A program made the position numbers and the translations under genes. A stretch of 64,000 nt of DNA from an uncultured Chloroflexia bacterium (GTDB lineage: Bacteria; Chloroflexota; Dehalococcoidia; Dehalococcoidales; RBG-16-60-22). The stretch is taken from the NCBI GenBank assembly GCA_963796365.1, contig CAWCLJ010000004.1:1162519-1226518 (forward strand). Reading direction: 5' to 3'. How positions within the stretch are numbered: position 1 is the first letter of the stretch; each line of letters begins with the position of its first letter. Below are positions 1,738 to 57,202 of the stretch, one piece after another. Below the pieces are notes generated by a model. It had not been told where the DNA came from. It did not search any database and saw only the letters and a program-made list of their open reading frames with translations.

Positions 1738-1881
1738 GCCCGGGTTGGTTTGCCCGATCCAGTATCAGCAAATGCAACAACAATGTAACTAATTCCGCGC
1801 GTGTTTTATAACTTCTTCATAAATCCGACTCTAGAATCGAAAGATGGGGATAGCCCCAAAAAAAACAATGGAGGGTAAATT

Positions 1882-3212: not shown

Positions 3213-4088
3213 ATGGTCCAGAATCTTACTCAAACCAAATTTTCGCCGGAAGAAATTACCGGCCAACTGGAGCAGGAAGTCCGGTCATTATGGCGGATGA
3301 TGCCGCGAGGAATATTACGCGGCGCCGAGTTACTGGTTTCCGCAATTCCGGTCCTCTGTATCATCGCGACGGTCATCGCCCAGGTATTATATACGGGCTA
3401 CAATCCCTGGCAGGATGCTATCAGCTCGCTGGTATGGAGCCCTCACGGGGCCATTCAAACGGCCGTCTTTTACCTCCTCGGGTTCTCGGTGTTAATCCTG
3501 GCGGTAAAATTATTCTTCAAGGCTAAACAGACGGTTTTGAAGACCGGTATTATCGCGCTGGCCTTAACCGGGGTAGGAATGGTGATGGTGGGGATATTCC
3601 CCGCGGCGCGTAACGGGTTCCCGCAAACGGTTATCAGCGATATCCATTTAAACACTTCTTCGGCGCTTATCTTCCTTTTCCCCATCGCCTGCTTTATTAT
3701 GGCCCCGAAGCTGAAAGAGTGCTTTTCCCGCCGCTGGCTATCCACATACACGCTGATTTCCGGCATACTGGGTATTGTATTCATCGGGGTAGAGGCATGG
3801 CTGCACTTTGCCGGCCGAGGCTGGATGGGCACTCTGGAACGGCTGGAGATATTGAACGGGATTGCCTGGGTGCAAACGGTGACGATACTGACGCTTAACA
3901 ACAGCAGCCAAAAGCGGCCTGAGACTGCCGGCGAGCTTAAAAACGCCGCAAAGAGTGAAGCAAAACCGCGGAGAACTTCAAGAATTATCCGGGCCGCGGC
4001 ACTAACGGCTTTGTGCGCTTTGATTCTGGTTCCGGCTATTCAGTTTGCCGGGCGGTCACGTAAAAAACAGGTGAAGGGTGGGTGTTAA
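3213..4088 (+). CDS. multi-pass membrane protein, DUF998-like, with basic C-terminal tail
   Basis: 291-aa ORF. 'YNPWQDAISSLVWSPHG' matches the same motif as ORF 1087-1737. Several TM segments. Confidence 0.5.
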   Translation: MVQNLTQTKFSPEEITGQLEQEVRSLWRMMPRGILRGAELLVSAIPVLCIIATVIAQVLYTGYNPWQDAISSLVWSPHGAIQTAVFYLLGFSVLILAVKLFFKAKQTVLKTGIIALALTGVGMVMVGIFPAARNGFPQTVISDIHLNTSSALIFLFPIACFIMAPKLKECFSRRWLSTYTLISGILGIVFIGVEAWLHFAGRGWMGTLERLEILNGIAWVQTVTILTLNNSSQKRPETAGELKNAAKSEAKPRRTSRIIRAAALTALCALILVPAIQFAGRSRKKQVKGGC

Positions 4089-4170
4089 TTCACTAAATTG
4101 ACGCCGGAGAGAGGGCAGGGGGAAAATATTTTTCAATCGTGGGGCAGCTTCAATTTGTGACAAAATACTA

Positions 4171-4200
4171 TTGACATGATTAGAACACCAGTGCTAATAT
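4171..4200 (+). promoter_or_regulatory. near-consensus promoter with extended -10
   Basis: TTGACA (4171-4176), an 18-bp spacer, then TGcTAATAT (4192-4200). It reads into the tandem repeat array. Confidence 0.6.
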
Positions 4201-4267
4201 AGGCTGTCAAGAGAAACGAAGATGGATAGGTGTGAACGTGAGACAACTATGAGAAATTCGATTCCAA

Positions 4268-4480
4268 CATTATGTTATTTCAGGCTTGACCCAGGCGTGA
4301 TTCGTTTTTCAGGGGTATTATGGAAAGCTAATCTCGCATCAGGCGTGAATCGTTTTTTAAGGGTATTATGTTAAATCAGGCTCGGTCCAGGCATAAATCG
4401 TTTTTTTGACATATTATGGTAAGCCTAGATACGATTCAGGCTCAAGGGCCTTTTTCAGGGTAGTTATGGTAAGTGATAGT
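4268..4480 (+). repeat. 48-bp tandem repeat, about 4.3 units
   Basis: Unit starts at 4268, 4316, 4364, 4412 and 4461. Conserved cores are TATTATGG, CAGGC and CGTTTTTT; the rest is degenerate. Confidence 0.85.
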
Positions 4481-4741
4481 GGATAGTGAATAGTGAATAG
4501 GGTTGAGGGTTAAGGGTTGAGGGGTGAGAAAAACTTCAAACTCTAAATCCTAAAACTCTAAACAAGCACGAAATACGAAGCTCGAAGCACGAAAGCCCCA
4601 CCACAAACCATTCCGTCCCCCGTATCGCAGTACGGGTTCAACCTGGTTCCACCGAGGTCACCACGAGGTGAACGGTTCACCGTGAACGGGGCAGGCTTGC
4701 AACGGTATGGTTACGGGTGGGTGATAACCCATCTTACTACA

Positions 4742-4870
4742 TTATTTCAGGACAGCGCGGACAAGGCGGATAACGCACTCTTCATCCAAAGAGGGCAGGC
4801 CCAAGTGAGCGCCGGCCAGGCCGATGGGCGAGACTCTTTCTCCGGTGCTACCGAGCGTGCGGTAAGTCAT
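4742..4870 (-). pseudogene. aldo/keto reductase, N-terminal 42-codon fragment
   Basis: Translates to 'MTYRTLGSTGERVSPIGLAGAHLGLPSLDEECVIRLVRAVLK*', a typical AKR N-terminus. The reading frame then ends in repeat modules. Confidence 0.6.
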
Positions 4871-4992
4871 GGAATTTTCAGGATATTTAAACCGGAGGGT
4901 TTTAAGATTAGGGGAGAATACTTATAAAGGTTAGACTGAACGAGAAAGGAAGGTAGGTATTTGCGGTAAATAATTTTAGTGGATTATGTATC

Positions 4993-6672
4993 TTAAGGAA
5001 TTTTATTTTCATATACGTAATCGTATAAATTCCTAGCTTCTAGGTTGTTATTTTCAGCAAGTATTTGTGCTAAATATGAAGTCGATAAGGTAAGATTAGC
5101 ATTGTCTTTTGCAAACTGACGTATTTTTGCAAGTAATTGTTTTCCTTCAGATAAAGTATGCCTTTTTGAGGCATCATTCCATATTAGATCAAATTTTGGC
5201 TTTATTTCTTCATAAACGGTATAAAATTCTTTACCTTTTGCAATAGGCGAAAATTTTATAGTTGCTTGTACATATTTTATTAGAGTTGGTTCATGTAACT
5301 CGTTATAAGTTGAATTTAAGAAATCTAAAAAGAGATTACGCAATTGTTGTGGAAATATCGATAATAATAAATCTTGTTGAAGAAAAATATTTTCAAATTC
5401 ATGTCCAGGTGTGAACGTTGTCCTAATCCCATTTCTTAAAAGCTCAATTGAAATTTTCTCAAGATAATCACCTGGATAAAAATCTTTGTCTAATAATAAA
5501 GAAAAAGAAGGTTCTTTTGCAAAGAACATTTTGTAAGCATTTTTATACGAAGAACAATCTTGCCACTTATTCAAGCCGAAAATTGGAATGTTATGAGTAC
5601 GAACAGATGAACCAAAGGCCTTAGCAATTTGTGTCAATAATGCATAGTCTTGAACATTCTCAGTAAAAATTATTCTCTCTACATCCTCAAATTGCGAGGC
5701 CACAAGATTAAATGAACTACCTATATCTTGGCGAATTTCCTCTAGACGATCTCTATTTTGAGTTGGTGTTGGTTTTGAAATATTGATTCCGCGTTTTATA
5801 TGTAAAATATGACTGAAATCAACCTCATTCATTAATTCAGAGGAATGTGTTGCAATTATCATTGAACCGGTAAAATATTCACGGAAGGTCTGTATCATAA
5901 TATGTTGCATTTCAGGATGTAAGAATATTTCAGGTTCATCTAATACTATTGTAGAACAATAAGAAAGTCTGACGAGATGGGTCATGAGTTGTAGCCAAAT
6001 TTGGAAACCTTGACCAGCGTAAGAAATTTCTCCCGTAATATTTCTTTCGGTAAAGGGACAATAAAGAATGTTTGTAGAACGATCATGTCCGACATCTCCG
6101 AGTATAGTTCTATTCCATGTTTCATAAATAATATTTTTTACTAATTCTCGTTGCTCGGGAGTTAGAAGTTGATATATATGATTTCTAATATGTAAAGGAG
6201 CTAATGAAGTATTTAAATGACTAAGAATATGGTCCCTACTTAAAAGTGCTTCCTCTTCGCGGATTTGACCTAATGGAGGCATAAACCCTAAAAGTGATTT
6301 AAGTGATGAAGGAGAATAAGCAGGTAAATTACATATAACCTGTTCCTTCTCACTATCAATATGAACTATTATTTCACGGCCGTTATCAAGTTCTGCCTGA
6401 ATTTCTGCAATACCATCTTGAAAACCATGGATTAGTCTGCGTAAATTTAAATCCTTAAGGTCACTAGCGTACAGTTGATGTTCAACCTCTCGGGTAGTTC
6501 CTTTTGCAAATCTAAAAGAATTTTCAAGCAATCTAAGCGCACGAAGAAGAGAACTCTTTCCAACATTATTCTTCCCTGTTATTAGAACGAATGCTTGATT
6601 GTCAGTAGGAAATTCAAATTCGTGACTAGAGTATGGACCAAAATTTTGCAAAATTATCCGTTGGATTTTCAT
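4993..6672 (-). CDS. ABC-type ATPase fused to TOPRIM/DUF4435-like domain (OLD-family / PARIS-like nuclease candidate)
   Basis: Start 'MKIQRIILQNFGPY' at 6672. The listed ORF extends upstream only because it reads into the IS. Walker A 'GKNNVGKS', 'YAGQGFQ', Walker B 'IVLDEPEIFLHP', 'ATHS'. C-terminal 'IIFTENVQD' and 'LLLDKDF'. Strongly AT-rich. Confidence 0.7.
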   Translation of the reverse strand: MKIQRIILQNFGPYSSHEFEFPTDNQAFVLITGKNNVGKSSLLRALRLLENSFRFAKGTTREVEHQLYASDLKDLNLRRLIHGFQDGIAEIQAELDNGREIIVHIDSEKEQVICNLPAYSPSSLKSLLGFMPPLGQIREEEALLSRDHILSHLNTSLAPLHIRNHIYQLLTPEQRELVKNIIYETWNRTILGDVGHDRSTNILYCPFTERNITGEISYAGQGFQIWLQLMTHLVRLSYCSTIVLDEPEIFLHPEMQHIMIQTFREYFTGSMIIATHSSELMNEVDFSHILHIKRGINISKPTPTQNRDRLEEIRQDIGSSFNLVASQFEDVERIIFTENVQDYALLTQIAKAFGSSVRTHNIPIFGLNKWQDCSSYKNAYKMFFAKEPSFSLLLDKDFYPGDYLEKISIELLRNGIRTTFTPGHEFENIFLQQDLLLSIFPQQLRNLFLDFLNSTYNELHEPTLIKYVQATIKFSPIAKGKEFYTVYEEIKPKFDLIWNDASKRHTLSEGKQLLAKIRQFAKDNANLTLSTSYLAQILAENNNLEARNLYDYVYENKIP

Positions 6673-6820
6673 AATATTTGACAAAGTATAAAACAAATAA
6701 ATAGGACAGTCAAGAAATAAAAATCGTTCATAACGCTTAAGATATACAAAAATCTCGTTTATTCTAAAAGCTAAATCATTATTTGTCAGTCCCCTCCTAG
6801 CCATATACGTAACCGAACCA

Positions 6821-8183
6821 GAGGTTCCGTCAATAGGTGTGTAAATGTCAGGCGACGGCAAGTACCTCCTCCTGTTTGATTTCTCCCGGGCCCAGGCTTT
6901 CGATACCCAGGTAAACTTCCTGTAATATCTCCGGTGCATCCAGCTTTCTGAATCGCTGCTCGGCAATCAAAAGCATCTTCCAGGTTACTGCCGTAGCGTT
7001 GGCCACTTTCTTAAAGCGCTTGGCCGCATCGGTCCGCAGTCTCAGAGCGGCGAAGGGCGATTCGACCGGGTTGGTGGTTCGAAGATGCTTCCAGTGCTCC
7101 TTCGGGAACCGATAAAAGGTCACCATCCGCTCCCAGTCATGCTCTAGTGCCGCGGCGGCCCGGTCATAGCCTTCTTTCCGGCACCAGCGGACGAAGTGGT
7201 CGCGCTTAACTTCGGCTTCCTCGCGGTCTGCCGAGTACACAATTCCCTGTAATTCATTCTTAGCATTGCCTTGTGCCTTCTTCGGTAACTTATCCAGCAC
7301 GTTTCGCACTTTGTGATTCCAGCAACGCTGCTCCAGCGCATCGGGAAAGACAGCATTCAAGGCTCCCCAGATGCCCAGGTGACCATCGCCCACTACCAGC
7401 CGGGGACAGTTCAGACCGCGTCCTTTGAGGGAACGCAACAGGTCGGACCAGCTTTCGGTAGATTCGCGATACCCGGGCTCCACCGCCAGGATCACCTTCC
7501 GCCCATCGCTTAATGCGCCGATCACCACCAGCAGCGCCGCCTTAGTTTTCTCCAGACCAGCCTTGATGTATACTCCGTCAACCCACATGTAGACCAGTCT
7601 CAGACCTTTGAGACTGCGCCGCCGCCACTCTTCCCATTCAGCTTGCCAGCTCTCCTTGAGTCGGGCTATCGTACTGGCGGAGATGGGCGCCTCTTCTCCC
7701 AACAGACCCCGTAGCGCCAGGTCAAAATCACCTTGCGCCAGACCGTGCAGGTAAAGCTGTGGTAAAAGCTGATTTACCTCTTTCGTCCTTCTGGCGAACA
7801 ACGGCAATACCCGGCTCTTGAAACGCTCCGCCAGACCTCTGACCCTGGGCCGGCGCACGGTAATGGTCCCACAGCCCAGCGTTAGCCTTCGCCGCTTGCC
7901 GTAGCCATTCCGGTACGCCCGCGAAGCATCCAGTCCCTCGCGCCGCTCGGACTTGCCGCGCCCCAACAGCTCTGTTATTTCATCTTCCAGTAGAGCCTGG
8001 ATGAATTCCCTCACCTTCACCCGCACCATCTCTTCGAGATAATCCCAGACTTTACTTGACGACTCCGGCTTCCCTGTGGTTTGCTTTCCCATGGTGGTGG
8101 GTACCCTCCTTCTGTTTGTTTCATCACTAACAGAAAGGGTACTCGCTGCCGCTAACTATTTCCACACTTTTTGATGATACCTC
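6821..8183 (-). mobile_element. IS256-family insertion sequence, apparently intact
   Basis: Imperfect terminal inverted repeats (GAGGTTCCGTCAATAGGTGTGTAAATG... versus the reverse complement GAGGTATCATCAAAAAGTGTGGAAATA...). 8-bp direct target duplication CCGAACCA at 6813-6820 and 8184-8191. Confidence 0.9.
6848..8092 (-). CDS. IS256-family (mutator-type) transposase
   Basis: 414-aa ORF with 'VYMWVDGVY', 'VVGDGHLG' and 'RCWNHKVRNVL' blocks characteristic of Transposase_mut. Confidence 0.9.
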   Translation of the reverse strand: MGKQTTGKPESSSKVWDYLEEMVRVKVREFIQALLEDEITELLGRGKSERREGLDASRAYRNGYGKRRRLTLGCGTITVRRPRVRGLAERFKSRVLPLFARRTKEVNQLLPQLYLHGLAQGDFDLALRGLLGEEAPISASTIARLKESWQAEWEEWRRRSLKGLRLVYMWVDGVYIKAGLEKTKAALLVVIGALSDGRKVILAVEPGYRESTESWSDLLRSLKGRGLNCPRLVVGDGHLGIWGALNAVFPDALEQRCWNHKVRNVLDKLPKKAQGNAKNELQGIVYSADREEAEVKRDHFVRWCRKEGYDRAAAALEHDWERMVTFYRFPKEHWKHLRTTNPVESPFAALRLRTDAAKRFKKVANATAVTWKMLLIAEQRFRKLDAPEILQEVYLGIESLGPGEIKQEEVLAVA

Positions 8184-9644: not shown

Positions 9645-9871
9645 CATCAATTGGCAGGGGGTAAGTATCAATTGCCAAGTATCAAGTATCAAGGAAGTGA
9701 TAAGTGATAATCGTTAAATGATTAACCCCCTCCCCGAACCGATATCCTTCGCCAGGCTCAGGATGACAAAGGAGGGGAAGATTGATTATAAACAGAGATA
9801 CATGAGTTTGGCCAGTCATCCTCTCCCTTTGGTAAAGGGAGAGTAAGAGAAGGATTTTGAGTAAAAAATAA

Positions 9872-11947
9872 ATGGACCATCACCCTCAAGAAGAAAAGTC
9901 AGCCGCCAGCTTTGCATTTATACCCGCCATAGTTTCCATGGGGTCCGCCCGGGTTTCCTGCGGCACCCGCTTTATCGTCTCCGCCGATAACGGGGACATC
10001 GTTCCCCGGGAGCGCCACCAGGGTTTTTACGCGCATGATACGCGATTTCTTTCCCAGTTCACCGTTACCGTTAACGGAAAAAGGCTGAACAACGTCGGCC
10101 GTGCCACCTTCGAAGACCGGCTGGCGAGCTTTTACTGCACGGTCGGGCAGATGAGCATCGTGCGGGACCGGAACGTCTCCCAGGTTTTCCATGAGGACAT
10201 CAGCATTACCAATAACGGGATTCACCCGGTAAACGTAAACCTGGAGATTGCGCTGGGGGCGGACTTCGCCGATGTGTTCGAGGTGCGGCGTGGCACGGTA
10301 CATAAAGCCGGTAATATTACGCTGGAACAGTCCGGGCCGGAAGGGCTGACCCTTGCTTACCGGAGGGGAAATTATTTAAGGGAGACCAGAATCCGGTTCA
10401 ACACGCCGGTAGAGATGAAGGGCAACGTGGCCCATTTTGAATTTCAATTAATGCCGAAAGACATCTGGCGGACGTGCATCGATATCAGCCCGGTGATGAA
10501 CAGTCACGAACACCAGGCATCAGCGTGTGTCAGCGAGATACTGGGCAAGCCCTTCGGCAACTACCAGGACAAGACCTATCTGGGTTTCTTCCAGGAGGTC
10601 GAGACGGGGATGCCGCTGGAAAAAGTGCCTTCCATCAAGACCGATAACCCGGACCTGGCGCAGGCTTATCACCGGGCCGTGGGCGACCTGCGGGCGCTGC
10701 GCCTGCCGCAGCGAAACGGGTATTATGTGCTGGCGGCCGGTCTCCCCTGGTTCATGGCATTATTCGGGCGGGACTCCATCATCAGCGCCATGCAGACCAA
10801 GATACTCGGGCCGGAACTGATGGTCGGCACGCTGCATACACTTGCGAGTTTGCAAGCCACCGGGTTCGATAAATTCCGCGAGGCGGAGCCGGGCAAAATC
10901 ATCCATGAAATAAGGCGGGGGGAGCTTTCGCTCTTCGGGAATGTGCCGCATACCCGGTATTACGGCAGCGTGGACGCCACGCCGCTCTTTATCATGCTCT
11001 TATGGGAAGCCTACCGCTGGACCGGCGACGTTAAAATACTGGAAGACATGCTGCCTTACGCCGAACTGGCGATGGGCTGGATCGAAAAATACGGGGACGT
11101 GGATGAAGACGGCTTTACGGAGTACCGGCGGCGCATCAGCAAGGGGCTGATCAACCAGGGGTGGAAGGACTCTTACGACTCAATATCCTTTAACGACGGC
11201 ACCCTGGCGCGCGGGCCGATAGCTTTATGCGAGGAGCAGGGGTATGTTTATGCCGCCAGGAAAAGCCTGGCATCCGCCAATGAAGTCCTCGGCAACTTTA
11301 AACGCGCCGATGAGCTATTAAGCGGCGCCGAAAAATTAAAAAAACAGTTCAACCAGGCTTTCTGGATGCCGGAACATGATTATTACGCCATCGCGCTGGA
11401 CGGGAAAAAGCAACTGGTCGATGCCATTTCTTCCAACCCGGGGCACTGCCTCTGGACGGGCATCGCGGACGATGACAAGGTGGCAAAAGTGGCGCAGCGG
11501 CTGACAGCCCCGGACATGTTCGCGGGGTGGGGCGTGCGGACGCTTTCTTCCGAGGCGAAGCGGTACAATCCTCTTTCCTATCATAACGGCAGCATCTGGC
11601 CCCATGATAATTCCATCATCGCGGCGGGCTTAAGGCGATACGGGTTTTACCAGGAAGCGGCCAAAATAGCCATGGCTGTCATCGAGGCAACGGCCGTTTT
11701 ACCGTCCCACCGCCTCCCGGAACTGTATGCCGGCTATACGCGGCGCGCCTATTCTTTTCCCGTCCCTTATCCCGCCGCCAACTCCCCGCAGGCATGGGCA
11801 TCCGGCTCGGTCATTTATTTCATGGAGACGCTGCTGGAGATAACGCCGGAAAACGAGCAGCTTGTTTCCGGCCCGCTGGTAAAAGCCAACCCGATGTTTA
11901 TTTTAAACGGGGTGCGCTACAAGGATAAAAAGCAGGCACTGCCGTGA
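9872..11947 (+). CDS. amylo-alpha-1,6-glucosidase / glycogen-debranching-like (GDE_N_bis + GDE_C) protein
   Basis: 691 aa. N-terminal 'GFYAHDTRFLS' and C-terminal (alpha/alpha)6-type blocks 'GLPWFMALFGRDS', 'GWKDSYDS', 'YHNGSIWPHDN'. Confidence 0.8.
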   Translation: MDHHPQEEKSAASFAFIPAIVSMGSARVSCGTRFIVSADNGDIVPRERHQGFYAHDTRFLSQFTVTVNGKRLNNVGRATFEDRLASFYCTVGQMSIVRDRNVSQVFHEDISITNNGIHPVNVNLEIALGADFADVFEVRRGTVHKAGNITLEQSGPEGLTLAYRRGNYLRETRIRFNTPVEMKGNVAHFEFQLMPKDIWRTCIDISPVMNSHEHQASACVSEILGKPFGNYQDKTYLGFFQEVETGMPLEKVPSIKTDNPDLAQAYHRAVGDLRALRLPQRNGYYVLAAGLPWFMALFGRDSIISAMQTKILGPELMVGTLHTLASLQATGFDKFREAEPGKIIHEIRRGELSLFGNVPHTRYYGSVDATPLFIMLLWEAYRWTGDVKILEDMLPYAELAMGWIEKYGDVDEDGFTEYRRRISKGLINQGWKDSYDSISFNDGTLARGPIALCEEQGYVYAARKSLASANEVLGNFKRADELLSGAEKLKKQFNQAFWMPEHDYYAIALDGKKQLVDAISSNPGHCLWTGIADDDKVAKVAQRLTAPDMFAGWGVRTLSSEAKRYNPLSYHNGSIWPHDNSIIAAGLRRYGFYQEAAKIAMAVIEATAVLPSHRLPELYAGYTRRAYSFPVPYPAANSPQAWASGSVIYFMETLLEITPENEQLVSGPLVKANPMFILNGVRYKDKKQALP

Positions 11948-12078
11948 TAGGGGATAGAGAATAGGGAATAGTGAATAGGGAATAGGGAATAGGGAAAAGT
12001 TAAAACTCTAAATCTTAAACCCTAAATCCTAAACAAATTCTAATAACCAAATACCAAAACACCAAACTCGTCTTCTTA

Positions 12079-15441: not shown

Positions 15442-15732
15442 ATTTATCACCTCCGGAGGAATTCTTATATGATTCTTATTTGGCGTAAATGAAGAAACCA
15501 TAAGTAATCATACTTATATTAGAATCATTATTTTCTTAAAGAGAAAGACATATGTCACAATTATTGTTTTTCAATCATTGTTGGTCACTAATAACTCAAT
15601 CACTTGATTTATTTGATATAATAGAAGCATTGGCTTAGAGTAACTTCACCTATAAAAAGAAAAGAATTGATTAAGGAACCTCTGAAAAAGTTCCAGTCAG
15701 CCCCCTAAATCCCCCAATCTTGGGGGACTTTT

Positions 15733-15782
15733 GAGTCTGGGGGACACCCCCAGACCCCCGCCAGAGGGTTCTCTGGACTCCT
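15733..15782 (-). repeat. family-A triple-hairpin element, short copy A1
   Basis: The reverse complement reads GGAGTCCAGAGAACCCTCTGGCGGGGGTCTGGGGGTGTCCCCCAGACTC and is shared with the copies at 18694, 43824, 49661 and 57051. Confidence 0.75.
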
Positions 15783-15789
15783 TTTTCAG

Positions 15790-15957
15790 AGCATTCTTAA
15801 ATATTTAGGCCAAAAGTGCGTGTATTTGATAAGAGAAGGCAGCAGACATAGCATTTTCGCAAAAGGGAAATTGAGGACGGAAATTCCAAGACACAATGAA
15901 ATAATCGATGAATTAGCGAAAAAGATTTGCCGGGACCTTGAAATTCCGTGTAAATAA
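15790..15957 (+). pseudogene. hicA: HicA-like toxin, N-terminally disrupted
   Basis: The frame ending at TAA 15955-15957 reads '..ILKYLGQKCVYLIREGSRHSIFAKGKLRTEIPRHNEIIDELAKKICRDLEIP'. There is no start codon, and the upstream part of the frame is the family-A repeat. Confidence 0.55.
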
Positions 15958-18319: not shown

Positions 18320-18693
18320 AAGGAAAACAACTGCAGGTAAAATTTTTCCGGCGGAAATGTTACCTCCCGGGGATTTATTGATACCAGTTTAGGGAATGGG
18401 AGGTATTTAGTCAATATTTCAACTATTTAGAGCGTAACAAAAAACAAAAATCCCCCGGAACTCTTGAAAGGAAACGGGGGATAAATCATTACTCGCTTAT
18501 TTCTACATTTGTCTCGTATACCAGTCAGGTCTACCGGTTAAATAATTTAAATTCTTTCCGCCCATTTTTTATCTATGAATTGTGTTTTTAAGATTTGCCC
18601 CCGTATCGCAGTACGGGGCATGCTTTTGACTTCTGATTTATTCTTATCAACCCCCTGAATGAGGGTGAGTGTGAGTAGTTGGTAGTTAGGGAT

Positions 18694-18747
18694 GACCGGG
18701 GGACGCCCCCGGAGCCCCCGCCAGAGAGAACTCTCTCCGGGCTCTCT
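18694..18747 (-). repeat. family-A element, copy A2
   Basis: The reverse complement reads GAGAGCCCGGAGAGAGTTCTCTCTGGCGGGGGCTCCGGGGGCGTCCCCCGGTC. Confidence 0.75.
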
Positions 18748-18956
18748 TTATTTCGTATATTTCTTGCTCATGCCTATTAAATTACCAAATCTCTTTACCC
18801 ACCGCAGGCCCCGTATCAACCTCTTTATGCAGATTATCTTTAGTAATTTTGGCTAATAGTTGATTAAGGGTAACAGGTTTTCTATTAACCAGTTTTTTAT
18901 TTTTGAGTTGTGGTTTTGAGATGTGAGATTTGATTTTTGATTTCTCCTTCCCACCC

Positions 18957-23367: not shown

Positions 23368-23603
23368 AGACCGGCGTTATTATAGGCAATGGTATAAATG
23401 TATGTCAACTAAAAAGGAAAATATCAAGTAACAACTGGTTAAGTAACAAGGAATGATTAAGGGGTAAGTGATCAGGGGTTAGGGGTAAGTTCACCCTCAC
23501 CCCGTATCGAGTACGGGGCAAGCTCTTAATCCTCTCCCGTCAAGGGAGAGGAAACTTGGGGGATTTTATCACTTATTATTCCTCACTTGCTACCTGGCAG
23601 TTG

Positions 23604-30636: not shown

Positions 30637-30854
30637 TATCAGGGAATAGGGTAAAGGGAATAGGGTGTTGGAAGGATTATACAAACCGATTATTTAGTGT
30701 TTAGGAGTCAGAATTTTAACAGGGTGGAGGAGTGCCCGTGGATTGAAAGCTGAAAGCAGATAACTGACAGCTAATAACTAACCCCTGTTCTTTATACAAA
30801 CAAATTGAAATGAGAATGCCGCAAGCAATATCCTTAGAGGGACGTCTTAAATTT

Positions 30855-33691: not shown

Positions 33692-34289
33692 TTTTTACTC
33701 CGGGTTTATTACTTATAATTAACCAATATATTATAATGCATTACGCACATGACGTAAAGGGTTTTTAAATATTTTTAGGGGATAGAGAATAGGGTATAGG
33801 GAAATAGGACACAATGGATAGAGTTTGTCACTCCCGCGCAGCCTGCCCCGCACGACAATCGGGGGCCGGAATCTAACATTACCCAAATATATTTTAAGGG
33901 CTGTAACATAACGCATTGAATCAGCATAATACATTGTCACCCCTTGTTAAAGGGAGAGACGAAGAGGATTTGGGGGGAAGAGATTAACAGCTTATAAAAG
34001 GTAAATCCAGCCATCGCCACATATCAGGCGAAACAGGCTTCCAGTCTATCGGCACAGGCGGGGACGCCTGTGCCGCCGGGGAAAAAGGGTTGGGCTTTAG
34101 AATTTTCCCCTACTTATCTTCCCTTCGCCCTTCTCCCTGAAATCAGTATTTATCTATGTAACTGACTTGACAAGCCTGCGCGCAAGTGATAGGTTATACA
34201 TTGGTTTTCCAAGAGAGGCTGGGAATTCCTTTTTTACATTTAGTTCGATTCTATTACCGGCAGCCCTGTGAGTTACGAGAGGTGGAAAG

Positions 34290-36892: not shown

Positions 36893-37553
36893 ATAATTGT
36901 TGTTGAAAAAAAGAAATAGACGGCTTGAAAAACAGTTTGATAAATGATGGTTTGCGGCGCCACAAGCACCCAAAGTTATCTGGCAAGCTAAATCTCCTTA
37001 CGGGGGGGGAATAACATGGGCTTCTGACCTAGAAAAGTTTAATTTAGAGACCAACCGGTTGTCAAGAAAATATAACCTTCAGCGATGGATTTTTTGTACA
37101 TTTTTTCATTGTAATTACCGACCCCGTATCAAGTATGTGGCAGGCTCTGACCGGGAATCCAGCATTGGTTTGACTTAATCAACGCCTTATCAGTATTCTT
37201 TCAAAAAGTGAAAACTAATAAATTTAGGAGTTTCGCTATTCAATGTTTGTTACAGTGGAAAGGCAGAACACTTCACTAAACCATGAGGTGAGATTACCAC
37301 GCCTCCTTCCGATGGTGCCCTTCGCTTCCCGATTTACTTCGTTCATATGGGACAGGTCGCTCGAGGGCAGGCTATTAGCTCACCATGACCCTTCGACAAG
37401 CACAGGGTGAGCGGGGAAGGATGGCCCGCAATTACATATCTTCCAAACGCGAAAGTACTAAACTTGTAACTAAAGTAAGGTGGGGCGGTGCATTGAAATA
37501 TTTGTCGTTGGTCCTTCCGATACCGGAAGGATTAGTATTTACCGGTAATATTT

Positions 37554-42471: not shown

Positions 42472-43713
42472 TCAGGTAATATTTATCCCTATCATTTTTA
42501 GAATGCTGGCCGGCACCAGCGGTGAAAGAATCAGGAAAGAAACGATATGAGCAACGATTACCAGTATCACTATCGAAAGCGCCAACCACTTCAGCTTACC
42601 GTTTCGACGATTCTTGAAAATATCGATTAGCTGTGAAAGCCCCATGCCTATCGCCAGACAGACCGCTCCCACCGCCGGGTAAAAGTAATAAATATAAGTT
42701 ACCCTCCTTGTCACGAGCGTAATCGGTATCCATATCAGGTAGGTAGCGACGAACCAGCAAAGCCCGAAAATCCCCGCTTCGTCACGTTTTATGGCCCGGT
42801 AAATCAGATACGCGAAGGCGGGAATAATCAAAACCCAGATGCTGAAACTGACGGCCGCTGTGTAATGCGGCGTGATATAAAACGGCATCGTCTTGAAACG
42901 ATAGAGCCATTCCCAGGGCGGGCTTTTGGAGGGGTGGGTCGAGTAGCTAAAGGTCAGACCGCCGGTCAGCCCCAGCATTTCGATTATGCGGGCGATGGGA
43001 TTCAGGAAACTGTTAAATTTCTGGACGATAGCAAAATTCAGCAATACCATCAGAATGATAAATACCGCGATGGCGGCGACAACCGTCCAAACAAACCGCC
43101 GGTGTCGCCGGTGCCGGTAGGAATAAATCCAGTCCAGGACCACCGTCAGCCCCCCGAAGAATCCGGACAATTTGGAAAGAGTGCTTAACCCTATAGCGAC
43201 CCCGGCCCGGACGTACTTCTGCCCGGCGAAAAGCAGGAAACCGGCCATCATAAAAGTGACGTAATAAACGTCCAGCATGGCGACGCTGCCCATCAAAAAG
43301 GTCAGGTTTTCAAAAGCCAGCAAAAAAGCCGCGATAGATGAACCGGTCCGCGATATATTGAGGCGGCGGCAGAGCAGGTAAAACAGCAAGATAGTCGCGG
43401 TGCCGAAGAGAATTGGCAAAACTCTCCAGCCCCACGGGTTGTTCCCAAACGCATCGATGCCGCCGGTAATGAGCAGCTTGGCCAGCGGCGGGTGCTCGAG
43501 ACGACCAGTCTCGTGATTCTGGGTGATATTTTGCGCGTCGGTAATATAATACTGCTCATCCAGGATAGGGGTTTTGGCGCTGTTGATTAAACTGAAATGC
43601 AGCACCAGCGTGGCGATGACGATTAAAGTCAGCCAGAAATACTCCCACCGGTAAATCCGGCCGGCGTATTCTTTAACGCTATTGCCGGGACTATCATCGT
43701 AAGATGTTGCCAT
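42472..43713 (-). CDS. GT39/PMT_2-type (ArnT-like) membrane glycosyltransferase
   Basis: Start MATSYDD at 43713. 'DEQYYITDA', 'EHPPLAKLLI', about 11 TM segments. Confidence 0.75.
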   Translation of the reverse strand: MATSYDDSPGNSVKEYAGRIYRWEYFWLTLIVIATLVLHFSLINSAKTPILDEQYYITDAQNITQNHETGRLEHPPLAKLLITGGIDAFGNNPWGWRVLPILFGTATILLFYLLCRRLNISRTGSSIAAFLLAFENLTFLMGSVAMLDVYYVTFMMAGFLLFAGQKYVRAGVAIGLSTLSKLSGFFGGLTVVLDWIYSYRHRRHRRFVWTVVAAIAVFIILMVLLNFAIVQKFNSFLNPIARIIEMLGLTGGLTFSYSTHPSKSPPWEWLYRFKTMPFYITPHYTAAVSFSIWVLIIPAFAYLIYRAIKRDEAGIFGLCWFVATYLIWIPITLVTRRVTYIYYFYPAVGAVCLAIGMGLSQLIDIFKNRRNGKLKWLALSIVILVIVAHIVSFLILSPLVPASILKMIGINIT

Positions 43714-43823
43714 GAATAATTTTCTGACTAAAAGACGATAATTGATTTTATTATAGCTTACCCGCTGAAATACTACGAGGAAGGGGGGACTAAAGCAAGA
43801 AACTCTAAGCACGAAACCCTAAA

Positions 43824-43916
43824 AGAGAGTCCAGAGAGAAATCTCGCTGGCGGTCCGCCTGAGGCGGACGGGGGTGTCCCCCGGCCACTTCTCTCTTCGG
43901 GAAGGGAAAAGGGGAG
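43824..43916 (+). repeat. family-A triple-hairpin element, copy A3
   Basis: GAGTCCAGAGAGAAATCTCGCTGGCGGTCCGCCTGAGGCGGACGGGGGTGTCCCCCGG, followed by a CTCTC../GGGAA tail. Confidence 0.8.
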
Positions 43917-43968
43917 AAATATGAAAACTTATTTAGAATTTTTTCTTTCCTATTGCTGGCGCTTGCGA

Positions 43969-44369
43969 TTAGTAAGTCGTATTGACCCCCACCCACTTGA
44001 AAAAGTCCACCGGGATGAACGGAGACAATATCAGGAAAGAAATGACGTGCGCCAGCCAAATAACTATCACCACGGAAAGCGCCAGCCCCAGGGATTGTCC
44101 CCGAACATCTGTATGCCGGCCACGATTATCAGCTTGGCCAGCGGCGCGTGCTCCAAACGCTGTGTGCCGTTATCGGCGATAAGGCTCCGGGCGTCCGTGA
44201 CGTAATGGACTTCATCCGGGATGATTTGCCTGGGGTAAAGGATGTTGGAAAAATGCAGTATCAAATATACAATGACGATGAGCGAAAGCCAGAAATACTC
44301 CCACCGGTAATAGCGGCGCGCGCTTTCCTTTATCGCCAGGCCCAGACGGTGCTTAGAAAATAGTTCCAT
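43969..44369 (-). pseudogene. GT39 paralog with large internal deletion and frameshift
   Basis: The N-terminal ~95 codons ('YRWEYFWLSLIVI...EHAPLAKLIIVAGIQMFGDNPWGW') parallel 42472-43713. The C-terminal ~38 codons ('LALSVVIVIWLAHVISFLILSP..') continue in another frame straight after the junction near 44067-44100. Confidence 0.7.
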
Positions 44370-46205: not shown

Positions 46206-46245
46206 CCAAATCACAAGATACAATGACCAAATCAAATAAAAAAAC

Positions 46246-46363
46246 ATTTGTCATTCCCGTACATTCGCTTTGCTCAGTATAAACTCCGGCGGGAATCCAA
46301 CACGTTATCCTTTTATCATCGGTTTTTCAAAGTGGATTCCCGATTGGATCGGGAATGACAAAT
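46246..46363. repeat. 118-bp MITE-like element with 14-bp perfect terminal inverted repeats (C1)
   Basis: ATTTGTCATTCCCG at 46246-46259 and its exact reverse complement at 46350-46363. The left half recurs inverted at ~51375-51435 and the right half at ~39331-39365. Confidence 0.75.
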
Positions 46364-49241: not shown

Positions 49242-49387
49242 AAAAATCTCCTTGAGGGCAGAGAGGAGCCTGGGGTATCACTCTAATTCTAATCTTATAA
49301 TACAGAAAGTGTTAAAGCAATAGTTAGGAGGATACGGAGGAAAAAATTGAGTAATCAACTATACGTAAGTATTAAAAAATAAAAGTC

Positions 49388-49506
49388 CCCTGGCAATGGC
49401 ATATTTTCCGCAAAGGGTTGCCCCCTCAGTATCGTCTGCGCTGAGGCGTTTCACTTCCGTGTTCGGGATGGGAACGGGTGGGTCCACCTCGCTCTAATCA
49501 CCAAGA
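49388..49506 (-). rRNA. rrf: 5S ribosomal RNA
   Basis: The minus strand reads CTTGGTGATTAGAGCGAGGTGGACCCACCCGTTCCCATCCCGAACACGGAAGTGAAACGCCTCAGCGC...GCCAGGG. The ends pair as helix I, and a T-run follows. Confidence 0.9.
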
Positions 49507-49660
49507 GACTTCTATTTCAAACCTTATATAGTTGTTAAAGGACTTTCACAATTACAGAATACATTATAGCACGGATTTTTGCCTTTGAAAAGACCTTTTG
49601 CGGTATTTTTAGCCCCGGTGCGTAAATTCTTATTAAGGGATTAGGGGTGAAGGCTTGGGG

Positions 49661-49762
49661 GAGTCCAGAGAACTCTCTGGCGGTCCGCCTGAGGTGGACG
49701 GGGGTGTCCCCCGGCATCCTCTCTCCTTGGGGAGGGAAAAAGGCGGGGCGCAAGGATTTAGA
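49661..49762 (+). repeat. family-A triple-hairpin element, copy A4
   Basis: GAGTCCAGAGAACTCTCTGGCGGTCCGCCTGAGGTGGACGGGGGTGTCCCCCGGC..GGGAGGGAAAAAGG..GGATTTAGA. Confidence 0.8.
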
Positions 49763-49891
49763 TATTAAAGTTTAGAATTTTATTTAATTGTACTTATTTG
49801 TAGTATTCTTTACCCCTCCTGTATAATAGGGCGTAACGCTTTAATACTTAACGCAAAACTTCAGTTTTAGGGGAGCGGAAAGGAGCCCGTC

Positions 49892-50113
49892 TTGGCCAGG
49901 GAAACGATAGGGGTACCGATTACGGGTAAAATCATCGCCGTCAACGTCAAACCCGGCGATAAGGTAAAAGAGGGGGACGTCCTCTGCACGCTGGAGTCCA
50001 TGAAAATGGAAAACCCCATTCTCTCGTCAGTGGACGGCACGGTGCTTGAAGTTGGCGTTAAGCCGGAACAAGTTGTAAAGCCCGGCGAGGTCATTGCGGT
50101 GATAGAGTATTAG
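49892..50113 (+). CDS. small biotin/lipoyl-attachment domain protein (BCCP-like)
   Basis: 'VLCTLESMKMENPI' biotinyl-Lys motif. 73 aa, TTG start after GGAAAGGAG. Confidence 0.75.
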   Translation: MARETIGVPITGKIIAVNVKPGDKVKEGDVLCTLESMKMENPILSSVDGTVLEVGVKPEQVVKPGEVIAVIEY

Positions 50114-50249
50114 GGGTTAGTGGGTAGTGGATAGTGAATAGTGGATAGGAAAATCCGAAGCACGAAGCAAGAAATAAGAAACAAATTCAAAACTTTAGAT
50201 AATAAGTTCAAAAGGGGGCCGAAAGGCCCCTTACTTTTTTTACAAGCGG

Positions 50250-51324: not shown

Positions 51325-51435
51325 TTCTGACGAAGGTCAGAATCCAGCAAAAACTTCAGAGTTTCTTTGCCTTTTTAAATGGATTCCAGCCGGAGTTTAT
51401 ACTGAGCAAAGCGAATGTACGGGAATGACATTTGT
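51325..51435 (-). repeat. composite hairpin-module element C2
   Basis: Its reverse complement begins CAAATGTCATTCCCGTACATTCGCTTTGCTCAGTATAAACTCCGGC, as does the left half of C1, then continues with a GGATTCTGACCTTCGTCAGAATGG hairpin. Confidence 0.7.
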
Positions 51436-51545
51436 TTTTTATCTTTGATTTGTGTTTTTGAGATTTGAGATTTGATTTTTGAGATTACACCCTCCCCCCT
51501 CCCCGCCCTTGCCTTTCCCAGCTAAACATAATATCCTGATAATGT

Positions 51546-53553: not shown

Positions 53554-53700
53554 GGCCAAATCCTCCTTATATGCTCCCTCAAAGGGAGGACAATTACCGG
53601 GTCAACAAATAAAGCTCTACATATAAAAGGCTAACATCGTCTCCCCTTTTAAGAGCCTGCCCCGTACCGCGATACGGGAGGAGATGAGAAAAGGATTCGA
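53554..53700 (+). repeat. ~148-bp composite intergenic block, copy 1
   Basis: Shares CAAATCCTCYTTATAT..CTCCCTYRAAAGGGAGGACAA and CTAACWTCGTCTCCCCTTTTAAGAGCCTGCCCCGTACCGCGATACGGGRGGAGATGAGARAAGGATTCG with 54462-54610. Confidence 0.8.
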
Positions 53701-53722
53701 GAGCAGGAGCGGAGGCGGATTC

Positions 53723-54461: not shown

Positions 54462-54610
54462 GGCAAAATCCTCTTTATATCCTCCCTTGAAAGGGAGGAC
54501 AACTAATCGGCTGTTAAATGACGATTAATGCGCGAGAGGCTAACTTCGTCTCCCCTTTTAAGAGCCTGCCCCGTACCGCGATACGGGGGGAGATGAGAGA
54601 AGGATTCGTG
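54462..54610 (+). repeat. ~148-bp composite intergenic block, copy 2
   Basis: See 53554-53700. It ends with the same ..GAGATGAGAGAAGGATTCGTG context in front of the DUF559 gene. Confidence 0.8.
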
Positions 54611-54982
54611 ATACCTTATAATAAAAACCTCGTAGAATTAGCCAAAGATTTAAGAAACAACATGACGAAGGCGGAGAAGTGCCTTTGGACAAGAATCAAA
54701 TCAAAATCTTTGGGGTATGCTTTTTTCAGACAAAGGCCGATAGGAGAATATATCGCGGATTTCTATTGCCCGAAAGCATTTCTCGTGGTTGAGGTTGATG
54801 GCGAACGGCACCTTATGAAAGACGTAATAGAAAACGATAGTGTAAGAGACGAATATATGCATAGCCTTGGTTTAACTGTATTCAGGTTCTCAAACATAGA
54901 AGTGCTGGAGAATACCGATAAAACCGTAGAAAAAATCTACAAGTTCTTAGATAATAAATCCAAACCGGGAAGTATTGCGTGA
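54593..54982 (+). CDS. DUF559 (Vsr-like) endonuclease-domain protein
   Basis: 'LRNNMTKAEKCLW', 'FRQRPIGEYIADFYCPKAFLVVEVDG..H', 'D..RDEYMHSLGLTVFRFSN'. The start is uncertain (54518, 54593 or GTG 54608). Confidence 0.75.
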   Translation: MREGFVIPYNKNLVELAKDLRNNMTKAEKCLWTRIKSKSLGYAFFRQRPIGEYIADFYCPKAFLVVEVDGERHLMKDVIENDSVRDEYMHSLGLTVFRFSNIEVLENTDKTVEKIYKFLDNKSKPGSIA

Positions 54983-55767: not shown

Positions 55768-56363
55768 CTGCCAGCCTTTAGCTATCGGCTTTCAGTCCCC
55801 CCTGCCCCTTTTCCCCTTTTCCCCGCTCATCCTGAGCTTGTCGAAGGATATCATGCTGTAGGAGTCCTTCCGCTTTTAGTGAGCTATAGTTTACCTTGAG
55901 CGAAGTCGAAGGGAACTATCGGAAGAACGGCGAAGCATCTCAGGGCGGCGGGGTAATTATTCCTTAATTCTAAAATGTCCTCCCCACCCTGATATCCTTC
56001 GTCCGCCTGCGGCGTCCTCCAGGATGACAAGAAATATTATTTTACTCGTAACCTGGCTTCAATTTTTGACAAAATCCCCTTTACAACCTCCTCTCAACAC
56101 TACTATACTGAAAGCTGAAAACTGACTACTGATAAATCACTTGCACCTTTACAAATCAACAAAAATCGAATTATTTAGCAAGACAAAATATTAGTAAAAC
56201 ACAGCTAAATTAACATAATATATGGGAACGAATAACCGGACGAATCAGCTTCGGCCCAAAGTTAACTGGGTAAAAAATTGCTGAAAAAACGAATCGAATA
56301 AAAAGAGGTGGTCGGGTGGTGTAACTGTATACCGTAAACTGTTAACTCCACCAGGAGCAGCAT

Positions 56364-57047
56364 ATGGCAGATGTAAAAATCAAAGTAGCGGCGGTTATCG
56401 TCGCGGCGGGGGATAGCCAGCGCATGGACGGCATGGATAAAATCCTGGCCTGCATCGGCGGCCGGCCCGTCCTGGCGCGCGTCCTGGATACTTTCCAGAA
56501 TTGCGATAAGGTAGAGCAAATCATTGTCGTTATGAATTCCAAAAATCTCGATGAAGCCAAACAGCTTATTGCCAAAGAGAAGAAATGGAACAAGGTCACC
56601 GATGTCGTCGTCGGGGGAAAACGGCGGCAGGACTCGGTTATCGAAGGCCTGAAAAAACTCAAGACCTGTGAATGGATTGTTATTCACGATGGCGCCCGTC
56701 CCCTCATGCGCGCCGAGCTTATCGAAAAAGGCCTTGAAGCCGCCAAAGAGACCGGCGCCGCCGCCCCGGCCGTCCCGGTAACGGACACCATCAAATTTAT
56801 TAAAGACAGCGATCTCGTGGTGCAGACCCTTCCTCGCCAGAATCTAAGAGCCACCCAGACCCCGCAGGTCTTCCGCTTCGATGTTGTGCAGAACACCTAT
56901 AAATTTACCCCCGGTGAGTATACCGATGATGCCTCGCTCGTGGAAAAAGCCGGTTTTAAGGTTAAGCTTTTCCCGGGTGCTCATGATAACATTAAGATAA
57001 CCACCCCGGATGACCTCGCCATCGCCGAAATTTTACTGAAATATTAA
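56364..57047 (+). CDS. ispD: 2-C-methyl-D-erythritol 4-phosphate cytidylyltransferase
   Basis: 'AVIVAAGDSQRM', 'VVGGKRRQDSV', 'VIHDGARP', 'TQTPQVF'. Confidence 0.9.
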   Translation: MADVKIKVAAVIVAAGDSQRMDGMDKILACIGGRPVLARVLDTFQNCDKVEQIIVVMNSKNLDEAKQLIAKEKKWNKVTDVVVGGKRRQDSVIEGLKKLKTCEWIVIHDGARPLMRAELIEKGLEAAKETGAAAPAVPVTDTIKFIKDSDLVVQTLPRQNLRATQTPQVFRFDVVQNTYKFTPGEYTDDASLVEKAGFKVKLFPGAHDNIKITTPDDLAIAEILLKY

Positions 57048-57050
57048 AAA

Positions 57051-57155
57051 AGAGAGTCCAGAGAGACTAGTCTCTTTGGCGGGGGCTCCGGGGGTGTCCC
57101 CCGGCTTCTTCTCTTCCCGGGGAGGGGAAAAGGAGTGGGGCATCAGGATTTAGAG
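57051..57155 (+). repeat. family-A triple-hairpin element, copy A5
   Basis: AGAGAGTCCAGAGAGACTAGTCTCTTTGGCGGGGGCTCCGGGGGTGTCCCCCGGC..GGGGAGGGGAAAAGG..GGATTTAGAG, located between ispD and ispF. Confidence 0.8.
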
Positions 57156-57202
57156 TTTTCTTCACTTGTTATTTATTTAAAGAGGCATAAACAGGAATTG
57201 TT

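Follow-up and report, generated by a model that had tools for sequence, protein, structure and literature searches.

Family-A, a hairpin-forming and apparently mobile family of small non-coding repeats in the Chloroflexota

A 64,000-nucleotide stretch of DNA from an uncultured bacterium of the Dehalococcoidales (contig CAWCLJ010000004.1, positions 1,162,519 to 1,226,518), referred to here as the window, holds five copies of a short intergenic repeat, Family-A. Family-A represents, within the Dehalococcoidales, a family of small mosaic non-coding repeats that extends across the Chloroflexota; this family had not been catalogued before and is of a well-known kind, namely hairpin-forming, apparently mobile non-coding bacterial repeats. 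The members share an invariant two-hairpin core in which GGGAGU is followed by a first hairpin (H1), whose stem varies in sequence with its pairing kept, then by UGGCGG(GGG) and by a second hairpin (H2) of the form G5-UGU-C5 with a variable outer extension. The explanation that we favor, at a probability of about one half, is that Family-A is a non-autonomous mobile element resembling a MITE (miniature inverted-repeat transposable element), one that works much like the Correia elements of Neisseria and is retained mostly in sense orientation.

Five Copies in the Window and a Family across the Phylum

The five copies, numbered 1 to 5 in order of position (15733, 18694, 43824, 49661, and 57051), had been proposed in a sequence-only reading of the window. 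Covariance model R1, a core model built from homologues in other genomes and run on the window with its filters off, finds exactly these five (69.6, 60.8, 57.7, 34.0, and 32.9 bits; E from 1e-15 to 1e-6) and no sixth, the next match having E = 0.32. The string GGGGGYGTCCCCC, with at most one mismatch, also occurs five times in the window, each time at one of the copies, against a shuffle expectation of 0.40; none of 100 shuffles reached five. Both orientations are represented and all five copies lie between gene calls, as that reading had it, and it was equally right that copy 5 is flanked by ispD and ispF (IspD = PF01128, IspF = PF02542). Its worry that the copies could be assembly artefacts can be put to rest because the ispD-ispF copy recurs without change in a Logan contig that was assembled independently (L001) and the element is present at the orthologous ispD-ispF site of a Joint Genome Institute (JGI) metagenome contig (L119) with a 92% identical IspF. 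The description of the element itself needed revision. "Three-hairpin" fits only two of the five copies, and the unit common to all of them has two hairpins; the two copies taken to be ~50 bp long are larger, the one at 15733 spanning ~15671-15800 and the one at 18694 running to ~18647. The last shared palindrome had been written as its reverse complement and reads CCGGGGGTGTCCCCCGG on the element strand. The three long copies do have a tail in common, but its hairpin is weak (consensus of -3.9 kcal/mol, mostly U-G pairs).

Scanning 185,579 species genomes with the pattern TGGCGGN{5,20}GGGGGYGTCCCCC returned at least 117 matching stretches. Among the matches listed, all of those with both GGGAGUCC and H1 come from metagenome-assembled genomes (MAGs; ~30 in number) labelled Chloroflexota (Dehalococcoidia/Dehalococcoidales, Anaerolineae, "Chloroflexia"), and those from Actinomycetota, Bacillota, and further phyla are lone matches that lack H1 and mostly fall in GC-rich sequence. 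In the DNA that was read, namely the 64-kb window and pieces of 8 kb from other genomes, R1 finds at least 134 copies from 36 sources, and many of these copies do not fit the exact pattern. The window is itself Dehalococcoidales-like, with a ClpC that is 83% identical to proteins assigned to Dehalococcoidales bacteria. The sequence family, which the earlier reader did not recognize, is indeed uncatalogued. At the gathering score, Rfam gives only 5S rRNA; at an E-value threshold, it adds only weak Clostridiales-2, Chlorobi-1, and Pxr noise. No relation to tRNA or tmRNA was found, no paper was found by a literature string search with the H2 core string, and searches for Chloroflexi together with MITE or repetitive extragenic palindrome (REP) turned up nothing relevant.

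A Structured Core with Exchangeable Modules

The sequence-only reading had suggested that a covariance model be used to look for compensatory changes, and these are found throughout the family. The alignment analyzed comprises 134 copies, was fitted to the model, and includes related copies that do not count as independent. Of its pair cells, 90.8% are paired (shuffles, 75.0%; slid partners, at most 65.5%). Both sides are changed in 325 cells versus 94 in shuffles, and the covariation score is 0.327 versus 0.103 in shuffles; template switching can also homogenize palindromes. Double changes occur in all ten H1 pairs and in the three outer H2 pairs, and entire H1 stems are swapped, for example CCAGAGGGGC/GCCCCUCUGG for CCAUCCCGA/UCGGGAUGG. 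The five central G-C pairs of H2 barely vary (98.9% of the cells of the G5/C5 stem are paired over the 134 copies) and are therefore uninformative on structure, for or against. Compensatory change is already visible among the window copies, where CCGGGGG/CCCCCGG in H2 becomes GUCUGGGGG/CCCCCAGAC in copy 1 and a G-C pair in the optional middle hairpin of copy 3 is G-U in copy 4. Within the stems as read on the element strand, G-U/U-G pairs outnumber A-C/C-A mismatches 62 to 32, which suggests that the hairpins matter on this strand, either as RNA or as single-stranded DNA (ssDNA). From class to class, the unpaired nucleotides of the core (GGGAGU, CGG, and loop UGU) are conserved, although the search pattern accounts in part for the lack of variation in UGGCGG and at the H2 center. 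Indels and covariation are together incompatible with coding, so the element is taken to be non-coding.

Around this core, the full element of ~110-200 nt is assembled from optional terminal inverted repeats, an optional extra hairpin, an exchangeable 3′ module (a C5...G5 hairpin or a G-tract block), and a YAGGGGGYUGA-like motif that usually comes after the 3′ module. The modules found 3′ of H2 include the perfect palindrome CCCCCUUCCUGGCCAGGAAGGGGG, UCCCCCAAGAUUGGGGGA (as in copy 1), G3N1G3N1G3N1G3 blocks, and the CU/GA tail of the window. G-quadruplex-type tracts with loops of 1-7 nt are present on the sense strand in 43 of 121 tails and on the antisense strand in 4; for tracts with 1-nt loops (G3N1G3N1G3N1G3), the numbers are 16 and 0. 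The extra hairpin directly after UGGCGG differs in sequence between genomes and reads, for instance, UCCUUCC...GGAAGGA in L053 and L085. Even H1 can be exchanged: in MAG DATDQG (L004, L030, L093), its place is taken by the hairpin of a different widespread repeat, UCAUCCUGAGCCUGUCGAAGGAUGG. The window holds three copies of a repeat with this same hairpin, GCTCATCCTGAGCTTGTCGAAGG (9741-9766, 37390-37418, and 55819-55852), whose translated reading is "...PFDKLRVSG". Head-to-tail arrays with periods of ~155 or ~230 nt are found in L087, L114, L081, L042, L109, L005, and L061, of which L109, L114, L081, L005, and L061 belong to Anaerolineae RSWS10. Many short contigs of the array-bearing MAGs stop inside arrays, which suggests that the repeat fragments MAG assemblies.

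Genomic Context and Orientation

Genes were called with a codon-usage frame-vote caller that recovered 39 of 43 reference gene ends in a benchmark, with no internal false positives. By these calls, 125 of the 134 copies lie between genes; the other 9 matches are inside called open reading frames (ORFs). A check was made of two of these 9, and the remaining ones may reflect errors of gene calling. In L105 (1396-1464, minus strand; ORF 244-2169, minus strand), an element sits in frame and in sense orientation inside the gene for isoleucyl-tRNA synthetase (IleRS), where an insert of ~70 residues holding the core separates two positions that lie only 8 residues from each other in the solved PDB structure 8c8v. 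An element in L066 (1053-1121, minus strand) is likewise in frame and sense, inside the ORF of an Eco57I-like methylase. For both insertions, a pseudogene or a misassembly may be the cause.

When spacers are counted by region, the element is sense in 28 and antisense in 8 of those between co-directional genes (binomial p = 0.0012), and a further 13 regions are divergent and 5 convergent. Downstream of the element, the 50 co-oriented genes have housekeeping roles without relation to one another (UvrD, aconitase, LeuRS, L13, IspF, MoeA, and others) and hit 85 Pfam families, none seen more than twice, and on this basis a riboswitch or regulon-specific leader was rejected. Promoter and terminator scans gave no consistent signal at the copies. 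A loose terminator scan calls H2 of copy 5 (sense) and the hairpins of copy 1 (antisense) and no other window copy; a T-run lies 6 nt after the antisense H1, the terminator criterion being a U-tract 0-2 nt after a GC-rich stem. Terminator-like sites near copies are no more common than in shuffles. Given calls that differ between copies, an intrinsic terminator was not adopted as the identity of the element.

Turnover between Relatives

The ispD-ispF spacer shows how quickly such sequences come and go. The window and L119 have Family-A there. In other relatives, the occupant is a palindromic, AT-rich repeat unrelated to it (ATACAAACTACAAACAAG...CTTGTTTCTTGG), which in one of them has a third repeat (GTCATTCCTGCGTAGGCAGGAATCC) nested inside, and in still others the two genes are 7-12 nt apart or overlap (Table 1). 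The window and L119 keep the last ~40 nt of the AT-rich repeat, so Family-A either entered an older insertion or took the place of most of it. The spacer is a landing pad for several repeat families and has a layered history. Turnover is not restricted to this site: R1 with filters off finds no copy in L120-L125, 72 kb from relatives that are largely syntenic and 84-90% identical in ClpC, versus five copies in the 64 kb of the window.

Element Ends and the Search for a Transposase

Clear terminal inverted repeats are present in 12 of 112 copies, and 5 of these 12, including copy 1, show TA-bracketed ends; wherever both ends can be made out, TA stands on either side, in the contexts C-TA-G, C-TA-A, or T-TA-A. 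Such end pairs read C-TA-GCAGGCTGCGGAA...TTCAGCAGCCTGC-TA-G, TA-GCAGGGTG...CACCCTGC-TA, C-TA-GAAGCTATTCGG...CCGAATAGCCTC-TA-G, TA-GCAGGGTGCTGAAAAA...TTTTTCAGCACCCTGC-TA, and, in the window, T-TA-AGAATGCTCTGAAAAAG...CTTTTTCAGAGGTTCCT-TA-A. In two cases, the upstream gene uses the terminal TAG as its stop codon. The inverted repeats of Tc1 and Himar1 read TA-CAGTGCTGGCCAAAAAG and TA-ACAGGTTGGCTGATAAGTCC, respectively (PMC3680223), and elements of the IS630 family insert at TA, duplicating it (PMC2170065). The ends of Family-A align to the Tc1 and Himar1 inverted repeats modestly better than shuffles do, the fraction reaching the score being 0.0015-0.18. The resemblance to Tc1/mariner/IS630 ends is a lead, not proof.

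The only transposase seen in the window is an ORF of the IS256/Mutator family (PF00872, E = 2.5e-61). This ORF adjoins a block of low GC content (38%; 4000-7000) with an ORF for an AAA_15/AAA_21 (AbiEii-like) ATPase, and the block may be an inserted defense or mobile island. A phage vehicle for Family-A was rejected since 2.9 million viral contigs held one real copy.

Weighing the Explanations

Family-A is best read as a non-autonomous mobile element of the MITE kind because it is small, non-coding, present in many copies, patchy in close relatives, stacked with other repeats, equipped in part with TA-bracketed inverted ends, and occasionally inserted in genes. In the mechanism that we propose, a transposase supplied in trans would move the elements, most plausibly one of IS630/Tc1/mariner type, with insertion at TA and often at the TA of a stop codon. 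Copies would afterwards decay, lose their ends, swap modules, or amplify in tandem. Those that survive in transcribed spacers would be mostly sense and hence co-transcribed, and their hairpins and G-tracts could then act on the mRNA through its stability or processing, as Correia elements do.

Small size, absence of coding, and presence or absence between relatives, the last as seen at the ispD-ispF site, are what is expected of a MITE; a number of other observations weigh against this explanation. No autonomous parent, that is, a full-length transposase-encoding element with the same ends, was found in the loci analyzed or in the window, and the terminal-repeat motifs there occur almost only at small elements. 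The IS256 element of the window was rejected as a parent, its ends (GGTATCATCAAAAAGTG...) being unlike those of Family-A. Similarity to the Tc1 and Himar1 ends is short and of modest significance, and the terminal repeats themselves are missing from most copies, including four of the five in the window. Among the ispD-ispF sites of relatives, no exact filled and empty pair with a TA duplication was found; the empty sites fail to prove duplication because the filled lineages share the extra 40-nt segment from another repeat. Across the phylum, conservation is higher in the interior core than at the ends. A typical MITE shows the opposite, which suggests that here the core itself is recognized or selected. 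Finally, a cut-and-paste DDE mechanism predicts neither the sense bias, nor the excess of G-U over A-C, nor the strand-specific G-tracts, and hairpins kept by covariation are unexplained by a plain MITE model. The conservation of the core, the covarying hairpins, the wobble and G-tracts on one strand, and the sense bias point either to a transposition intermediate that is single-stranded and recognized by its hairpins or to selection on co-transcribed RNA.

The first of these possibilities corresponds to an element of the type of REPs and bacterial interspersed mosaic elements (BIMEs) that is moved or maintained on ssDNA by an HUH enzyme (Y1, similar to the REP-associated tyrosine transposases, RAYTs) recognizing H1 and H2, with the orientation bias reflecting the replication strand. 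Such an enzyme fits the compensatory changes that keep the hairpins as stem sequence drifts, the tolerance of wobble on one strand only, the lack of terminal repeats in most copies, and the arrays and mosaic modules, as well as the tendency of neighboring copies at most 8 kb apart to share an orientation (L049, L079, L083, and L098, for example, and the three window copies at 43-57 kb, all on the plus strand regardless of gene direction). We nevertheless consider it unlikely. No GTAG/CGTC head is present, H1, H2, and H3 (the third hairpin of copy 1) are mutually unlike whereas IS200/IS605-type and REP ends carry similar hairpins, arrays are direct rather than alternating, divergent spacers are frequented more than convergent ones (13 vs 5), and a subset of copies has TA-bracketed terminal repeats; a scan of 10 window ORFs revealed no Y1 transposase or RAYT gene, which the sequence-only reading had thought worth seeking. 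The second possibility, a cis-acting RNA module in untranslated or intercistronic mRNA (a stabilizer, an RNase III/E site, or an RNA G-quadruplex switch) that spread long ago and was kept by the host for its function, is at odds with the close relatives whose orthologous site lacks the element, which make it dispensable for ispF. It must also contend with functionally unrelated neighbor genes, with antisense placement in a quarter of co-directional copies, with copies inside ORFs, and with a core "conservation" that the search pattern partly imposes. These outweigh in our judgment, and so make improbable, a case built on the sense bias, the excess of G-U over A-C, the sense-strand G-quadruplex-type tracts, the unpaired nucleotides that are conserved across classes, and the alternative pairings that become possible as several G5 runs compete for two C5 runs.

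Two further proposals are very unlikely. A family of independently transcribed, trans-acting small RNAs would be multi-copy, structured, and ~100-150 nt long, as Family-A is, and the weak, repeated sub-threshold matches to the small RNA family Clostridiales-2 in Rfam lean the same way, but there is no upstream conservation past the terminal repeat, promoter and terminator scans are inconsistent at the copies, and copies abut stop codons or sit in ORFs. That H1 keeps its pairing and not its sequence, which a site bound as duplex would not need, and that the strands are asymmetric, which such a site would not lead one to expect, leave only a slim chance for a double-stranded DNA site bound by a protein of the nucleoid or of DNA topology, the role that BIMEs have for gyrase and integration host factor (IHF); G5-TGT-C5 would then be an inverted-repeat operator, in keeping with the near-perfect inverted repeat and invariant center of H2 and with intergenic, dispersed copies.

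A more far-reaching idea, which we hold to be doubtful, is that the two-hairpin core GGGAGU-H1-UGGCGGGGG-G5UGUC5 is a phylum-wide selected single-strand recognition module rather than passive MITE filling. If this were true, it would explain why the interior is conserved better than the ends, why wobble is tolerated on one strand, and why sense orientation prevails. The core could then serve as substrate for an enzyme specific to the Chloroflexota, for example a new transposase of ssDNA or a factor that processes or binds RNA, and the competition among G5/C5 runs, together with the G-quadruplex tails, would make the structure of the RNA or DNA switchable. Sediments, groundwater, and wastewater harbor Chloroflexota (Dehalococcoidia, Anaerolineae) in abundance, and no interspersed repeat family of this phylum was found described in Rfam or in the literature searched. 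The family appears to break MAG assemblies, to seed spurious ORFs, and to add peptides to real proteins (IleRS); a model of it would improve annotation. It also marks sites of rapid intergenic turnover and possibly of rearrangement. With its unusually conserved, covarying core and its strand-specific G-tracts, it is a tractable candidate for a conserved protein-nucleic acid interaction or for control of mRNA within operons, in a phylum that has received little study.

Anatomy and Surroundings of the Window Copies

On the element strand, every window copy reads (A)AAGRGAGYCC, H1, GGCGG, a linker, and H2. H1 is CCAGAG...CUCUGG with 6-9 bp, and H2 is G5-YGU-C5 with 1-4 added pairs. The linker is GGGYYY or, in copies 3 and 4 only, an inserted hairpin, GUCCGCC-UGA-GGYGGAC. 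These two copies are 86% identical across 77 nt (repeat family D7). The complete element of copy 1 has a predicted fold of -55.7 kcal/mol (z = -4.8), and copy 2 has a C/A-rich spacer without a hairpin between H2 and its 3′ motif. The coordinates of all parts are collected in Table 1.

Table 1. Coordinates of the Family-A copies in the window, of the neighboring ORFs, and of the occupants of the ispD-ispF spacer in relatives (percentages as in the first such row)
Feature	Position	Strand	Details
Copy 1, complete 130-nt element	15671-15800	-	outer ends TTAAG...CTTAA; R1 60.8 bits
Copy 1, terminal inverted repeats	15781-15791 and 15680-15690		11-nt exact core CTCTGAAAAAG in ~20-nt imperfect arms
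Copy 1, H1	15761-15776	-	
Copy 1, H2	15735-15755	-	9-bp stem GTCTGGGGG/CCCCCAGAC
Copy 1, H3	15710-15727	-	third hairpin UCCCCCAA-GA-UUGGGGGA, then UUUAGGGGGCUGA
Copy 1, 3′ motif	15697-15709	-	TTTAGGGGGCTGA
Copy 2	18647-18752	-	R1 57.7 bits
Copy 2, H1	18721-18740	-	one G-U pair included
Copy 2, H2	18696-18712	-	loop CGU
Copy 2, 3′ motif	18647-18657	-	CAGGGGGTTGA (= CAGGGGGUUGA); also in elements of other genomes
Copy 3	43821-43939	+	leader AAAAGAGAGU, core, tail through TTTAGAAT; R1 34 bits, E = 7e-7
Copy 3, H1	43831-43850	+	CCAGAGAG-aaat-CUCGCUGG, one mismatch
Copy 3, optional middle hairpin	43853-43869	+	GUCCGCC-UGA-GGCGGAC, directly 3′ of UGGCGG
Copy 3, H2	43870-43882	+	GGGGG-UGU-CCCCC
Copy 3, pyrimidine-tract/purine-tract tail	43885-43916	+	CUUCUCUCUUCGGGAAGGGAAAAGGGGAG; repeat family D3; hairpin weakly supported
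Copy 4	49659-49778	+	tail to GGATTTAGA at 49754-49762
Copy 4, H1	49665-49680	+	
Copy 4, middle hairpin	49683-49699	+	
Copy 4, H2	49700-49712	+	
Copy 5	57048-57162	+	R1 69.6 bits; boundaries from comparison with L120 and L146
Copy 5, H1	57058-57079	+	
Copy 5, H2	57088-57104	+	
Copy 5, tail	57105-57162	+	
Stop codon TAA of ispD	57045-57047		copy 5 begins directly after it
Start of ispF	57203		
IS256/Mutator-family ORF	6848-8092	-	PF00872
AAA_15/AAA_21 (AbiEii-like) ATPase ORF	4993-6966	-	
ispD-ispF spacer with Family-A	window and L119 (IspF 92%)		
ispD-ispF spacer with AT-rich palindromic repeat	L120 1125-1313 (91%); L121 5849-6000 / L122 (82%)		unrelated to Family-A
ispD-ispF spacer with AT-rich repeat and nested third repeat	L146 982-1245 (89%)		
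ispD-ispF spacer of 7-12 nt, or genes overlapping	L144/L145 (82%); L147 (86%); L125; contigs of P0007 and P0009 (85%)		

Copies 1, 2, and 5 are sense with respect to their neighbors, and copies 3 and 4 are antisense to the adjoining large genes, copy 3 starting 3 nt from the start of the adjoining minus-strand gene. Copy 3 sits in a decayed gene, given that a relative (L123) has two intact PMT paralogues at that place; directly beyond the copy, the window has a remnant of a second PMT-family glycosyltransferase (44067-44369, minus strand, ~75% identical to 43426-43674). Copy 4 lies in the break where homology to relatives ends (~49572), upstream of a 5S rRNA-clpC block. That block is inverted in the window (49242-49900), and in relatives L123-L125 the 5S rRNA gene and clpC are co-directional with the downstream biotinyl-carrier gene. 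A 61-nt inverted repeat, 95% identical (46239-46299 / 51380-51440), brackets the interval 46.3-51.4 kb. The 5S rRNA gene (49388-49505, minus strand) stands alone, with no 16S or 23S rRNA gene in the 64 kb, and in relatives it is likewise unlinked and upstream of clpC.

Other repeats share the intergenic space of the window. Short arrays of 7-nt units (GGGAATA / GTGAATA / GGGTTGA) occur in at least six intergenic places (4467-4530, 11945-12008, 23460-23484, 30641-30665, 33759-33808, and 50108-50157). A small hairpin repeat, CCCCGTAYCGCRRTACGGGG, is found at 4617-4636, 18598-18617, 53659-53678, and 54568-54587, with one copy just downstream of copy 2 of Family-A. A 75-nt repeat, 95% identical (53628-53702 / 54537-54611), precedes each of two 2′,5′-RNA-ligase paralogues.

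Comparison with Known Families

The closest entry in Rfam, RF02937 Clostridiales-2, is matched below threshold four times in nine loci, and the likeness consists of GGGnGU, a CAGGGG...CCCCUG hairpin, and CG on the 5′ side and GUCGAAGGG on the 3′ side; the best match reaches only 24.2 bits (E = 0.09) versus a gathering score of 58.6, the phylum is different, and H2 is absent from the Rfam model. Integron attC sites were rejected by inspection alone, with no GTTRRRY core sites, no single bulged hairpin, and housekeeping flanks.

REP/BIME elements, to which the sequence-only reading had likened the serial hairpins, are palindromes headed by GTAG or CGTC that form clusters of alternating orientation at gene 3′ ends and in convergent spacers and are rare in divergent ones. 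They are known from Enterobacteria and Pseudomonas, and the genome encodes a Y1 (IS200-like) RAYT whose gene is typically flanked by repeats. The likeness holds insofar as both are GC-rich extragenic palindromes with serial hairpins and a mosaic, composite make-up that can lie inside operons (ispD-ispF) and possibly stabilize mRNA. By the tests run, Family-A is not a member and fails on the head tetranucleotide, array geometry, and spacer preference: the alignments show GGG(A/G)GU and then CC at the head and no GTAG/CGTC, and the element is longer, has several hairpins, forms direct arrays, is not depleted in divergent spacers, and has TA-bracketed terminal inverted repeats in a subset.

Streptococcus pneumoniae has BOX elements, which do not extend beyond one species group and follow the plan boxA-boxB(n)-boxC, the middle modules varying in number. 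Family-A shares with them a modular build, stable secondary structure, and intergenic location and differs in sequence and host. Rickettsia palindromic elements are small palindromic repeats that also occur in frame inside protein-coding genes, as a Family-A copy does in the IleRS of L105, but for Family-A in-gene copies are exceptional.

The Correia elements of Neisseria (Correia repeat enclosed elements, CREE, or Neisseria miniature insertion sequences, NEMIS) are non-coding, ~100-150 nt long, bounded by terminal inverted repeats, inserted at TA, and present or absent from strain to strain; they are co-transcribed with genes, and their hairpins affect mRNA processing. Their sequence is unrelated to that of Family-A, and they belong to one genus and form essentially one long hairpin made by the ends, whereas Family-A is phylum-wide and has a conserved interior of separate local hairpins, swappable 3′ modules, and a putative TA duplication. 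What the two have in common is that both are small, non-coding, hairpin-forming elements with many copies near or between genes.

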